Of a stretch of DNA of 64,000 nucleotides, positions 36,934 through 40,198 are shown piece by piece. This DNA is from an uncultured Chitinophagaceae bacterium (GTDB taxonomy: Bacteria; Bacteroidota; Ignavibacteria; UBA10030; UBA8401). The DNA lies in contig CAYJMS010000001.1 in assembly GCA_964371615.1 (NCBI GenBank), forward strand, positions 23,048 to 87,047. Reading direction: 5' to 3'. Made by a program: the position numbers and the translations under genes. Under the pieces are notes generated by a model that had not been told where the DNA came from, did not search any database, and saw only the letters and a list, made by a program, of their open reading frames with translations. Numbering within the stretch: position 1 is the stretch's first letter; every line of letters starts with the position of its first letter.

Positions 36934-38679
36934 ATGAAAATTAAGAACAGATTACCGCAGCGTAAAACCCTGCCCAAAGCGCCAACAAATATACTGGGAT
37001 TGGATGAGATCACGGGAGGCGGTTTACCGCGAGCCAGGCCGACGTTGGTCTGCGGTGGTGCCGGATGCGGTAAAACTCTTTTTGCGATGGAATTTCTTGT
37101 TCGCGGAGCGACAATAAACAATGAACCCGGCGTCTTCATCTCGTTTGAAGAGACTGAAAAAGAATTAATCGCCAATGTTGCCTCATTGGGCTACAATCTC
37201 GAGGGTCTCATAGCACAGAAAAAAATCTTGCTGGAACATATCCGCATCGAACATCCCGACGGTGAACATCCCGTCGAACTCGACCTGAACGAACTTTTTC
37301 TTCGGATCCATCAGGCAATTGAAAACATCGGTGCAAAACGGGTTGTGCTCGACACAATCGAAACGCTCTACGCCGGCATGTCGAATCCGCGGATTCTACG
37401 GGGCGAATTGCGCAAACTGTTTCGTTGGTTGAAAATCAAAGGTGTTACAACCATCATCACTTCAGAGCGGGGTGACGGAACGCTGACTCGGCATGGCCTG
37501 GAGGAATATGTTACCGATTGTGTGATTCTGCTCGATCATCGAGTGGAAAATCAATCGTCGATACGGCGGCTTCGGATCGTCAAATACCGCGGTTCGACAC
37601 ACGGTACCAACGAATATCCGTTCCTTATCGATGAAGACGGTTTTTCCGTTCTGCCGGTCACGTCGCTTGGTTTGAATTACTTTTCGTCCCATGAAAGGAT
37701 TTCGACCGGAATTCCCCGACTGGATACGATGCTGTCGGAAAAGGGGTACTTTCGCGGCAGTACGGTGCTCGTCTCCGGTACCGCCGGTACAGGAAAGACA
37801 AGCATTGCATCCAAATTTGTCCAAGAGGCATGTTCACGAAATGAACGCGTACTCTTCTTCACGTTTGAGGAATCACCCAGCCAGTTGATGCGGAATATGC
37901 TCTCCATCGGAATCCATTTGGAACCGTTTGTGAAAAATGGATTGCTGAAATTTCACGCAACCCGTCCGACATTGTACGGTCTGGAAACTCATCTGGCAAC
38001 AAGCATCAGAAAGATCAATATATTTAAACCGACCATTGTTGTCTTTGATCCGATAAACTCCTTCATGACGCAGGAAAATCAGGCCGAAGTGAAATCGATG
38101 CTTCTCCGGCTTGTCGATTTTTTGAAGATGAAGAAGATCACGACATTTTTTACTAGTCTCACGAATTCCGGCGAAAATATGGAGACAACCGATACGTACA
38201 TCTCTTCCCTGATCGATACGTGGTTGCTGTTGAGGGATATCGAAGTCGGAGGAGAACGGAACAGAGGGCTGTACGTTCTAAAGTCGCGCGGAATGGCTCA
38301 TTCCAATCAGATCCGTGAATTCCGTCTGACTGCACACGGCATCGAACTGCTGGATGTGTATGTCGGCGCCGACGGCGTACTGACGGGAACCGCACGCATA
38401 TCGCAGGAGGCGCGGGACAGGGCACAGCAAGTATTGAACCGGCAGGAGATCGGACGCAAACAGTTGGAGTTGAAGCGAAAGCGGGAAGTATTGGAAGCGC
38501 AAATCAAGGTCCTTCGCTCGGAATATGAATCGGTAGAATCCGAAGCATTGCGAACTATGGAGATTGAAAAGGCGAGACTTGTGCGATTTATCCATACCAA
38601 AGAGACCATCGCAAAGAGCAGGAAAAGCGACGCCGTGAGGCGGGCAGCGGCTATCAAGCGAAAGCCGGTAAAGAAATAA
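36934..38679 (+). CDS. kaiC: KaiC-family double-RecA ATPase with a C-terminal coiled-coil extension. No kaiB or kaiA lies adjacent.
   Basis: Two tandem KaiC/RecA-like domains, each with a Walker A (GGAGCGKT; GTAGTGKT) and a Walker B. The typical KaiC length of about 500 aa is followed here by a roughly 90-aa charged coiled-coil tail. GGGAGA precedes the start. Confidence 0.85.
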   Translation: MKIKNRLPQRKTLPKAPTNILGLDEITGGGLPRARPTLVCGGAGCGKTLFAMEFLVRGATINNEPGVFISFEETEKELIANVASLGYNLEGLIAQKKILLEHIRIEHPDGEHPVELDLNELFLRIHQAIENIGAKRVVLDTIETLYAGMSNPRILRGELRKLFRWLKIKGVTTIITSERGDGTLTRHGLEEYVTDCVILLDHRVENQSSIRRLRIVKYRGSTHGTNEYPFLIDEDGFSVLPVTSLGLNYFSSHERISTGIPRLDTMLSEKGYFRGSTVLVSGTAGTGKTSIASKFVQEACSRNERVLFFTFEESPSQLMRNMLSIGIHLEPFVKNGLLKFHATRPTLYGLETHLATSIRKINIFKPTIVVFDPINSFMTQENQAEVKSMLLRLVDFLKMKKITTFFTSLTNSGENMETTDTYISSLIDTWLLLRDIEVGGERNRGLYVLKSRGMAHSNQIREFRLTAHGIELLDVYVGADGVLTGTARISQEARDRAQQVLNRQEIGRKQLELKRKREVLEAQIKVLRSEYESVESEALRTMEIEKARLVRFIHTKETIAKSRKSDAVRRAAAIKRKPVKK

Positions 38680-38719
38680 CAAGATCAAAGGTCTGTGATA
38701 CGATGACAAGGAATTCTAT

Positions 38720-40198
38720 ATGAATATACTGCTTGTGTATCCGATGTATCCGGACACGTTCTGGAGTTTTAAGCATGCGTTAAAATTCGTGTCGAAGAAG
38801 GCGAGTTTCCCGCCGTTGGGATTGCTTACCGTCGCCGCAATGCTTCCCCGGGAATGGAACCAGCGATTGGTCGATCTGAATGTGAACGAACTGAGCGACA
38901 GTGAGATCCGCTGGGCGGATTATGTCTTCATCAGCGCCATGTCCATCCAGAGCGAGTCGGCTCACCGGGTGATCGAACAGTGCCGGCGGTTGAATGCGCG
39001 GATCGTCGCCGGCGGTCCATTATTTACCAGCCATGCAGAGCTCTATAATTTTGTCGATCATCTGGTATTGAACGAAGCCGAGATCACACTTCCGGAATTT
39101 TTGCGCGACCTTCGCGATGGAACGCCAAAACATATGTACACGACGGAAGAATGGGCGGATATCACAACCACTCCGCTTCCCCGGTGGGACCTGGTGTCGC
39201 TGAAAAATTATACGTCGATGAATGTTCAGTATTCCCGCGGATGTCCGTACGATTGTGATTTCTGCGATATCACCGTCCTGTACGGCAGAAAGCCGCGGAC
39301 AAAAACCACACACCAAGTTCTGGCCGAATTGGATGCATTGCACAGTGCCGGCTGGAACGGATCGGTCTTTTTTGTCGATGATAATTTCATCGGCAACAAG
39401 GGGAAATTAAAAAAGGATATTCTCCCGGCAATTATTGAGTGGAATGAACGTCGAGATCATCCGTTTTACTTCAATACGGAAGTATCGATTAATCTTGCCG
39501 ACGATGACACGCTATTGCATCTGATGGTGCAAGCAGGGTTTGAGGCGGTCTTCGTCGGCATTGAGTCTCCCAACGAGGAAAGCCTCATGGAATGCAATAA
39601 AACGCAAAATCGCAACCGGGATATGATACGGAGCGTGCACAAGATCCAGCACGCGGGCATGGAAGTGCAAGGCGGATTCATTGTCGGATTCGACAACGAT
39701 CCGCCGGCAATTTTTGACCAGATCACTCAGTTCATACAGGAAAGCGGCATCGTCACGGCAATGGTCGGATTGTTGAATGCCCCGCGTGGGACGAAATTGC
39801 ACAAGCGGCTCCATGCCGAAGGGAGAATGCTCTTCAATTTTACCGGCAGCAATACCGACTTCTCTATCAATTTCATTCCGCAGATGGATTCCGGCACTCT
39901 CATGAATGGATATAAACGCATTATCAACACGATCTATTCGCCGAAGTACTTTTACGAACGGGTCATCCGCTTCATGAAAACATATCAACCGCAGAAAAAG
40001 AAAGTGTTCCATCTCAATCCGAACTATGTCATTGCGCTTTTCCGATCCATGATCAAATTGGGAATTATCGGCGAGGAACGGTTCTATTACTGGAAACTGT
40101 TTCTCTGGTCGCTCTTCCGGAAACCGCAGCTCTTTTCACTCGCAATATTGTTCACGATCTACGGTTTTCATTTTCGAAAGATATCCAACAGCTTGTAA
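38720..40198 (+). CDS. B12-binding-domain radical SAM protein with a C-terminal DUF4070-like region.
   Basis: The N-terminal region is cobalamin-binding-like. The radical SAM core carries CPYDCDFC (CxxxCxxC). A C-terminal helical extension follows. AAGGA precedes the start, which lies 40 nt after the kaiC stop. Confidence 0.85.
   Translation: MNILLVYPMYPDTFWSFKHALKFVSKKASFPPLGLLTVAAMLPREWNQRLVDLNVNELSDSEIRWADYVFISAMSIQSESAHRVIEQCRRLNARIVAGGPLFTSHAELYNFVDHLVLNEAEITLPEFLRDLRDGTPKHMYTTEEWADITTTPLPRWDLVSLKNYTSMNVQYSRGCPYDCDFCDITVLYGRKPRTKTTHQVLAELDALHSAGWNGSVFFVDDNFIGNKGKLKKDILPAIIEWNERRDHPFYFNTEVSINLADDDTLLHLMVQAGFEAVFVGIESPNEESLMECNKTQNRNRDMIRSVHKIQHAGMEVQGGFIVGFDNDPPAIFDQITQFIQESGIVTAMVGLLNAPRGTKLHKRLHAEGRMLFNFTGSNTDFSINFIPQMDSGTLMNGYKRIINTIYSPKYFYERVIRFMKTYQPQKKKVFHLNPNYVIALFRSMIKLGIIGEERFYYWKLFLWSLFRKPQLFSLAILFTIYGFHFRKISNSL

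Follow-up and report, generated by a model that had tools for sequence, protein, structure and literature searches.

Why should a gene for the clock protein KaiC stand without its usual partner, kaiB, and directly in front of a gene for a radical S-adenosylmethionine (rSAM) enzyme? This arrangement is found in a stretch of 64,000 nucleotides (nt) from contig CAYJMS010000001.1 of an uncultured bacterium of the Ignavibacteria (assembly GCA_964371615.1), referred to here in its full length as the window, where kaiC and the gene for a cobalamin (B12)-binding rSAM enzyme lie on the same strand, separated by 40 nt. The explanation favored here, with a probability of about 0.6, is that the protein is a KaiC2-type KaiC from which kaiB was recently deleted, that the pairing with the rSAM gene is a side effect of this deletion, and that the KaiC works free of KaiB. 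So understood, the locus presents no categorically new module; its KaiC represents the KaiBC hourglass in a variant without KaiB, and its rSAM an uncharacterized member of a known superfamily.

The kaiB gene in the window and in related genomes

The initial annotation of this DNA described kaiC as having neither kaiB nor kaiA for a neighbor, and the present search agreed: with KaiB and KaiA as tblastn queries, no match was obtained in the window (best E-values, 4.6 and 0.076), the search covering these 64 kb of the genome. The lipoprotein gene upstream of kaiC (Table 1) was considered as a hidden kaiB and ruled out, given the signal peptide and lipobox of its product and the lack of any Pfam match. 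A survey of species-representative genomes provided 80 kaiC loci, 27 of them Ignavibacteria-like and 53 from elsewhere, which were searched by tblastn with the proteins of the window and one KaiB. Outside the Ignavibacteria-like group, 52 loci were informative, from Bacteroidales, Acidobacteriota, Pseudomonadota, Planctomycetota, Nitrospirota, and other groups, and every one has kaiB directly 3′ of kaiC, often in two copies; in this respect the earlier statement that non-cyanobacterial KaiC homologs usually travel with kaiB or with histidine-kinase partners is supported for the relatives of this KaiC. The gene was present in 10 of the 27 Ignavibacteria-like species-level loci. From these counts, kaiB is regarded as ancestral, and the distribution suggests repeated loss of kaiB in the Ignavibacteria.

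The position that kaiB formerly held is indicated by two loci, L167 (JGI) and L169 (NCBI GCA_054605115.1), that are gene-for-gene collinear with the window from the gene for TamB to that for a Por-secretion-tail protein. In both, the array reads TamB-BamA-...-kaiC-kaiB-rSAM-mlaEFD-hydrolase, with a 122-aa kaiB that starts at the end of kaiC or 4 nt before it and is followed by the rSAM gene after 46-67 nt. The closest relatives of the window, L170 (KaiC 97% identical) and L001/L002 (93%), have the same array as the window, with kaiB missing. No remnant of kaiB was detected in the 40-nt spacer of the window or in the 140-nt spacer of L001, either by loose tblastn searches or by nucleotide alignment to L167. 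In a further locus, L009, the order is omp164-kaiC-kaiB-mlaEFD-hydrolase, without rSAM; because it has kaiCB-mlaEFD and no rSAM gene, the rSAM gene is regarded as a later insertion. The starting arrangement would thus have been kaiCB-mlaEFD, into which the rSAM gene was presumably inserted 3′ of kaiB to give kaiC-kaiB-rSAM-(small ORF)-mlaE-mlaF-mlaD, where ORF denotes open reading frame; a clean and recent deletion of kaiB in the lineage of the window would then have left kaiC 40 nt from rSAM.

These comparisons show that the kaiC/rSAM pair came about through the loss of kaiB and did not evolve as a module of two genes. Direct succession of the two genes is confined to one shallow lineage comprising the window, L170, and L001/L002, and kaiB lies between them in L167 and L169, so that the proposal of a new kaiC-rSAM module made in the initial annotation does not stand; the test of conservation in related genomes that had accompanied it was run, and the adjacency proved for the most part not to be conserved. 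In the window itself, a terminator-like hairpin was looked for in the 40-nt gap without success, and since nothing separates the genes, the rSAM gene is probably co-transcribed with kaiC. A scan for promoters and terminators across positions 36300-43500 gave counts at or below the expectation from shuffled sequence and is informative only for the gap being without a terminator.

The KaiC protein and its docking loop

Full-length KaiC with two intact halves, as had been annotated, was confirmed for the 581-aa product, including its ORF and both Walker A and both FEE motifs. Pfam PF06745 is matched in two stretches (E-value 2e-105) and NCBIfam NF006799 with 702 bits (cut-off, 408), while the equivalog model for cyanobacterial KaiC, TIGR02655, is matched below its cut-off (352 vs 546 bits). 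Retained in the protein are the Walker A motifs GGAGCGKT and GTAGTGKT with K47/T48 in the CI half and K288/T289 in the CII half, the catalytic Glu pairs E72/E73 and E312/E313, and, as aligned to KaiC of Synechococcus elongatus, the arginine fingers R444/R452. The predicted autophosphorylation sites, S424/S425, align with S413/S414 of Rhodobacter sphaeroides KaiC and with S431/T432 of S. elongatus KaiC, and the phosphomimetic structure 8FWI has EE at the matching position. The ratio of nonsynonymous to synonymous substitution rates (dN/dS) between the window and L001 is 0.074 for kaiC, similar to those of the rSAM gene (0.071) and the mla genes (0.05-0.07). Purifying selection on KaiC is strong, and all catalytic and phospho-acceptor residues are kept. 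Homologs of ~580 aa with 74-79% identity are plentiful in metagenome-assembled genomes (MAGs) labeled Ignavibacteria, Ignavibacteriaceae, Melioribacteraceae, or Bacteroidota; no literature on KaiC in Ignavibacteria was found. With regard to possible horizontal transfer, the GC content is flat at ~0.48-0.50 over 30-44 kb of the window.

The best match to KaiC in the Protein Data Bank (PDB) is 8DBA, the R. sphaeroides protein, with 644 bits over residues 13-566, tail included; the tail-less construct 8DB3 was aligned only as far as residue 499, and cyanobacterial entries (e.g., 1TF7, 4O0M) gave about 327-350 bits over residues 6-501, leaving ~80 residues of KaiC beyond the part alignable with the cyanobacterial proteins. 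The clade of R. sphaeroides type has been described as predominantly the kaiC2 subgroup, with a Ser-Ser pair as phospho-sites and a C-terminal coiled-coil extension of ~50 aa that bridges two hexamers and leaves the A-loop exposed, thereby allowing autophosphorylation without KaiA (Pitsawong et al., 2023; PMC10076222). KaiC of the window has both the Ser-Ser pair and a tail of at least ~50 aa aligning to this coiled coil, and by sequence it belongs to the KaiC2/R. sphaeroides clade. The tail noted initially, a predicted coiled coil, is real; regarded then as an extra feature, it is a known hallmark of the KaiC2 clade, as the alignment to 8DBA and the published account (PMC10076222) indicate.

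It is in the B-loop, the predicted docking loop for KaiB and SasA, that the protein departs from its relatives. The loop of the window KaiC aligns with F121/D122 of S. elongatus, equivalent to F122/D123 of Thermosynechococcus elongatus, and the latter residues were found to be required for binding of both KaiB and SasA (bioRxiv 10.1101/2020.06.17.158394; PMC6378743). Across 66 kaiB-linked KaiCs, 274 alignment columns show conservation of 85% or more; at these, the lineage of the window has 22-23 departures, the highest count among the relatives, whose median is near 8. Of the 20 departures common to the window and L001, seven fall within residues 107-120. The changes in the loop include Y116L, E119N, and G120E, with D117 kept. 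After removal of near-duplicates, 65 kaiB-linked and 27 kaiB-less KaiCs were available for residue counts: at position 116, all 65 of the former have an aromatic residue (Y or F), where the window has L and L001 has V. An acidic residue (E or D) is found at position 119 (window positions 37288-37290) in 65/65 kaiB-linked proteins and in 2/27 of those without an adjacent kaiB, counts that are uncorrected for kinship; the other residues among the kaiB-less proteins are K/R (18), N (3), V (2), and A (2). Of the features expected of a KaiBC hourglass, the window thus lacks a kaiB partnered with kaiC within its 64 kb, and its KaiC lacks two residues of the B-loop, the aromatic one at the T. elongatus F122 equivalent and the acidic one that lies two positions beyond the D123 equivalent.

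As judged from these alignments, the KaiB-docking B-loop has degenerated. Because four of the 14 loop positions differ between the window and L001 despite 93% identity of the proteins overall, the constraint on the loop appears to be relaxed, and such drift suggests relaxation rather than a newly fixed interface. The erosion of the B-loop, the selection acting on KaiC, and the restriction of the close KaiBs found to the L167/L169 lineage together make genuine KaiB independence the reading that we infer to be the better one. The acidic residue at position 119 may be a KaiB contact and a sequence marker of KaiB dependence; it offers clock biochemists a testable candidate and may allow dependence on KaiB to be predicted from sequence.

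With kaiB recently lost, KaiC still purified by selection, and its docking loop decaying, the lineage represents a natural experiment for which collinear, kaiB-bearing sisters are at hand for comparison. In R. sphaeroides, KaiC and KaiB together act as an hourglass, its resetting governed by the ATP/ADP ratio; KaiC without KaiB "remained phosphorylated," dephosphorylation at a night-like ATP/ADP ratio requiring KaiB (PMC10076222). By analogy, KaiC of the window would assemble via its coiled coil and autophosphorylate S424/S425 without KaiA and, without KaiB, would be a largely constitutively phosphorylated autokinase/ATPase, losing its phosphate only upon a sharp fall in ATP/ADP and so acting as an energy-state or stress switch. 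It is thus probably an ATP/ADP-sensing autokinase switch instead of a timer. The KaiB-less KaiC-like proteins of Pseudomonas were reported to contribute to stress resistance, with phosphorylation that tracks the age of the culture and responds to no circadian cue (Terrettaz et al., bioRxiv 10.1101/2022.01.26.477890).

The rSAM enzyme and the alternative explanations

The initial annotation of a B12-radical-SAM enzyme of unassigned function 40 nt 3′ of kaiC and on the same strand was upheld with respect to both ORFs and domains. The enzyme has a B12-binding domain (PF02310, 47 bits), a Radical_SAM domain (PF04055, 59 bits) with the CxxxCxxC core CPYDCDFC at residues 175-182, and DUF4070 (PF13282, 132 bits), that is, all three domains of the class B (cobalamin-dependent) DUF4070/HpnP-like proteins. 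This architecture is that of HpnP and of uncharacterized "HpnP-like" proteins (PMC10697835), and published mentions of DUF4070 were found in the context of HpnP alone. None of the NCBIfam equivalogs came near its cut-off (PhpK-family, the best, 86.5 vs 600 bits; BchE, 70 vs 481; HpnJ, 54 vs 578; HpnR, 52 vs 650), and the enzyme matches none of the characterized B12-rSAM families (HpnR, HpnJ, BchE, PhpK, ladderane rSAM, AprD4, etc.); its top match in the PDB, AprD4 (6FD2), is a distant one at 39.6 bits. Membership in a known pathway, which the initial annotation had named as a finding that would speak against it, was checked, and the enzyme fits no known pathway model. The most likely activity is that of a cobalamin-dependent methylase, and its substrate may be an envelope lipid, a guess drawn only from the HpnP-like architecture and the Mla/TamB/BamA context.

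Orthologs of the enzyme with 75-80% identity were recovered from 80 Ignavibacteria-like metagenome loci, most of them without kaiC, and so the gene is considered to be conserved independently of kaiC. In other lineages, tandem paralogs of B12-rSAM enzymes are located directly 5′ of the ortholog (L145:6383-7873, L159, L128, L109, L158; L168:8365-9969), namely a 40%-identical "rSAM2" and a protein of ~514-534 aa that is less closely related; only a single copy is present in the window. In a reciprocal analysis of these 80 neighborhoods, the flanks of which vary in length, kaiC occurred in the available flank of 12, and the order kaiC-then-rSAM was found in 0/56 loci for which the upstream flank is 1.5 kb or longer.

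Several observations weigh against the explanation by kaiB deletion and lend weight to one or another alternative. That KaiC and the rSAM form a real module, in which the energy or time state sensed by KaiC gates expression or activity of the enzyme directly or via LuxR-type regulators, would agree with the terminator-free 40-nt gap on the same strand and with the likewise tight kaiC-kaiB-rSAM of L167 and L169 (gaps of 46 and 67 nt). Among the rSAM loci, kaiC lies within 10 kb in five of the 15 with at least 6 kb on each side, and rSAM is directly followed by kaiC in 6/58 with a downstream flank, these belonging to a different KaiC subclade as assigned from a custom distance neighbor-joining tree that is approximate and without support values. 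In this second subclade, the order is rSAM2-rSAM-kaiC with gaps of 156-600 nt (L109, L145, L156, L158, L159), that in L156 continuing as rSAM-kaiC-kaiB. Near kaiCB of L048 and L012, rSAMs of 48-53% identity are encoded; L048 (Pseudomonadota MAG JAZDPP010000104.1, 150-8246) has kaiC-kaiB-kaiB with the 53%-identical enzyme 4.9 kb 3′. Finally, LuxR/NarL-type response regulators (~230 aa; Response_reg and GerE domains) flank kaiC or kaiCB in ~16/27 Ignavibacteria-like loci (L007-L032, L059) and rSAM in ~26/80, being the commonest shared neighbor. Linkage of the two genes is thus above chance, and two independent juxtapositions hint at shared regulation. Yet rSAM adjoins kaiC in none of the 27 species-level Ignavibacteria-like loci and lies within 10 kb in only three, its subfamily is found near kaiC in 1/53 loci from elsewhere (L048), too rarely for a general cross-phylum module, and most rSAM loci are without kaiC, their best-conserved neighbors being Dps, the GT4 glycosyltransferase, and regulators. 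A shuffled syntenic neighborhood alone could yield such loose linkage, and deletion of kaiB accounts for the adjacency in the window. We therefore regard a true module as doubtful. The linkage, though real, is loose and can be explained by regional synteny or by a shared regulon without a dedicated module, and there may be a weak functional or regulatory connection. In a broader version, kaiC (with or without kaiB), the LuxR-type regulators, the HpnP-like rSAM and its paralogs, and the Mla and outer-membrane protein (OMP) genes would constitute one energy/stress regulon of the Ignavibacteria, in which phosphorylation of KaiC would control how an envelope lipid or some other cell component is modified in a cobalamin-dependent reaction; we consider this quite unlikely, and if it were true, the lineage of the window would be its natural KaiB-free version, with kaiC and rSAM in a single transcription unit.

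The remaining alternatives concern KaiC itself. A kaiB may exist elsewhere in the genome, beyond the 64-kb window, which would make this KaiC part of a standard KaiBC hourglass with a relocated kaiB and an orphan only within the view afforded here. The strong purifying selection on KaiC would fit with such a relocation, as would the otherwise canonical B-loop (VERGEIEQSGEYDL) that many kaiB-less KaiCs of Ignavibacteria-like genomes have kept; the loop of the window, however, is changed at the F122 equivalent and its neighbors, is drifting between close relatives, and lacks the acidic residue so closely tied to linkage with kaiB. In addition, in a search of 5.8 billion proteins with KaiB of L167, the close matches all belonged to the L167/L169 lineage and none was on a contig attributable to the lineage of the window, a result that is weak evidence of absence. 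Relocation therefore seems unlikely. The same loop changes could also mean that, instead of decaying, the loop was adapted to dock a new partner, e.g., a histidine kinase or another thioredoxin-fold protein serving as a new output or input. Non-conservative changes are indeed common to the window, L170, and L001 (HPDGE...DLNELF), and hybrid PAS histidine kinases are encoded at 15345-20230 of the window, but the loop differs at 4/14 positions between the window and L001 and no conserved new neighbor adjoins kaiC in this lineage, making remodeling highly unlikely. That KaiC is a decaying relic, a future pseudogene following the loss of kaiB, might be read from its having the highest count of conserved-column departures among the Ignavibacteria-like KaiCs compared. 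This is extremely improbable, being effectively refuted by the dN/dS value, which is like those of rSAM and the neighboring mla genes, and by the conservation of all catalytic motifs in an intact 581-aa frame; kaiC is also conserved in the three relatives sampled. Two further reservations bear on the explanation by kaiB deletion, namely that the S. elongatus KaiC sequence used for residue mapping is supported by the agreement of its aligned range with that of PDB 1TF7, and that the behavior proposed for a KaiB-less protein is extrapolated from R. sphaeroides KaiC (644 bits by HMMER against KaiC of the window).

Neighboring genes and comparison with known systems

The features of the locus are compiled in Table 1. 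Upstream of kaiC, the order of the plus-strand block at 25421..36757 is matched in L001, L167, and L169. Eight genes were counted in this block, which had initially been described as a five-gene envelope cluster and as a possible output of KaiC; what connects it with kaiC is shared synteny only.

Table 1. Genes, sites, and spacer of the window considered in the text, in order of position.
Feature	Position	Strand	Basis or remark
TamB-like	25421-30328	+	Pfam/context
Omp85/BamA-like	30359-32674	+	Pfam/context
HPF, ribosome hibernation factor	32723-33124	+	Pfam/context
OMP beta-barrel	33565-34128	+	Pfam/context
144-aa ORF	34181-34615	+	Part of upstream block
C11-like	34652-35815	+	Pfam/context
164-aa ORF with signal peptide	35875-36369	+	Part of upstream block
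Lipoprotein, 111 aa	36422-36757	+	Signal peptide, lipobox
kaiC, double-domain KaiC, KaiC2/R. sphaeroides type, 581 aa	36934..38679	+	Pfam KaiC x2, NCBIfam NF006799
KaiC B-loop equivalent, residues 107-120, HPDGEHPVELDLNE, predicted KaiB/SasA docking loop	37252..37293	+	Alignment
Ser424-Ser425, predicted autophosphorylation sites	38203..38208	+	Alignment to R. sphaeroides and S. elongatus KaiC
Predicted coiled-coil extension at the C terminus of KaiC, residues ~490-581	38401..38676	+	Alignment to 8DBA
kaiC-rSAM spacer, 40 nt, putative scar of kaiB deletion	38680..38719		kaiB in this position in L167/L169
B12-binding radical SAM enzyme with DUF4070, 492 aa, HpnP-like architecture	38720..40198	+	Pfam
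Small basic ORF, 36 aa, MTKKSVKKRK...NNGPIDRGIINR	40240..40350	+	Conserved in L170, L167, L169
mlaE	40427-41269	+	Pfam MlaE; TIGR00056 214 bits vs 212 cut-off
mlaF-like ABC ATPase	41272-42066	+	Pfam ABC_tran
mlaD	42096-42968	+	Pfam MlaD
alpha/beta hydrolase	43406..44233	+	Pfam Abhydrolase_1; collinear in L001, L009, L167, L169

Downstream, mlaEFD is located 3′ of kaiC or kaiCB in 6/27 Ignavibacteria-like loci, directly in five and after a small ORF in one; over all loci, the mla genes follow directly in L003, L009, L017, L019, L031, and L032, and L023 has one small ORF in between. The lysine-rich 36-aa ORF between rSAM and mlaE has a conserved KNNGPI(D/N)RG motif and a C-terminal end reading ...KNNGPIDRGIINR. 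A second lysine-rich ORF of 41 aa (MSKSQNSKSDAKKKPLLTKKEKKAAKREKKLGTPVIDLLSK; ~43066-43191) between mlaD and the hydrolase gene is conserved in L001, L167, and L169, and a similar ORF of 49 aa lies between kaiC and mlaE in L003. Between the hydrolase gene and that for the Por_Secre_tail protein, an ORF of 620 aa with a TTG start (44470-46332) has no Pfam or NCBIfam match and no gene at its place in L167 or L169. A giant ORF of 2961 aa, also with a TTG start, occupies 611-9496 at the start of the window.

Across the metagenome loci, the commonest neighbors of rSAM are the LuxR/NarL-type regulators, Dps/ferritin, a 760-aa GT4 glycosyltransferase, and one or two B12-rSAM paralogs, together with a sigma-70-family factor, RRM RNA-binding proteins, and mlaEFD. 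Genes associated with stress or stationary phase, encoding HPF, Dps/ferritin, BON, CsbD, sigma-70-family, and RRM proteins, recur near kaiC and rSAM (e.g., L003, L005, L131), and the kaiC/rSAM region would appear to be a shuffled neighborhood of such genes. The LuxR-type regulators (e.g., L016:2965-4577; L020:9085-9804 and 12708-13436), of which the window has no copy, are candidates for an output of KaiC; that they, and not kaiB, are the commonest neighbors of kaiC in Ignavibacteria provides a pointer to the outputs of non-photosynthetic KaiC systems. In several loci (L005/L006:5652-9169; L011, L022, L102, L110, L114), kaiC is adjoined by genes for a 985-aa CheB-CheR-PAS fusion and a PAS protein of ~181-186 aa, which may be an input or a signaling partner of KaiC; no such pair lies near kaiC in the window. 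At 11981-20230, the window encodes LysE, a 465-aa ORF, and DnaJ, and then two hybrid PAS histidine kinases, an order resembling the flanks of kaiCB in L005 (LysE, a 458-aa ORF, BrkB ... kaiC-kaiB-DnaJ) that hints at a rearranged ancestral neighborhood.

With respect to known systems, the mlaE, mlaF-like, and mlaD genes of the window, the most persistent 3′ neighbors of kaiC/kaiCB in Ignavibacteria-like genomes, resemble those for MlaFEDB phospholipid transport, although neither mlaB nor mlaC was recognized and the ATPase and MlaD are below the cut-offs of Escherichia coli-type equivalogs. The rSAM is identical in its three-domain architecture to the hopanoid C-2 methylase HpnP and the HpnP-like class B radical SAM proteins (PMC10697835), but it exceeds the cut-off of no hopanoid model, and no genes for squalene-hopene cyclase or hopanoids were seen nearby. 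The KaiC-like proteins of Pseudomonas provide a plausible functional analogy in that they function without KaiB; unlike the window kaiC, which neither adjoins, they are accompanied by a conserved histidine kinase and response regulator. With the cyanobacterial KaiABC oscillator of S. elongatus and T. elongatus, the KaiC of the window shares its fold and catalytic residues; it differs in the lack of kaiA and kaiB from the window, in its Ser-Ser instead of Ser-Thr pair, in its score below the TIGR02655 cut-off, and in the long C-terminal coil that is predicted to stand in for the role of KaiA. The KaiBC hourglass of R. sphaeroides (8DBA, 8FWI, 8FWJ) differs in having a KaiB and an intact means of docking it, and, to extrapolate from the R. 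sphaeroides KaiC alone, the protein of the window would skip the half-cycle of KaiB-dependent, night-time dephosphorylation. The resemblance is otherwise close: the two proteins align from end to end, tail included, with the Ser-Ser, Walker A, and Glu pairs in common, and in close relatives of the window kaiB still follows directly 3′ of kaiC.

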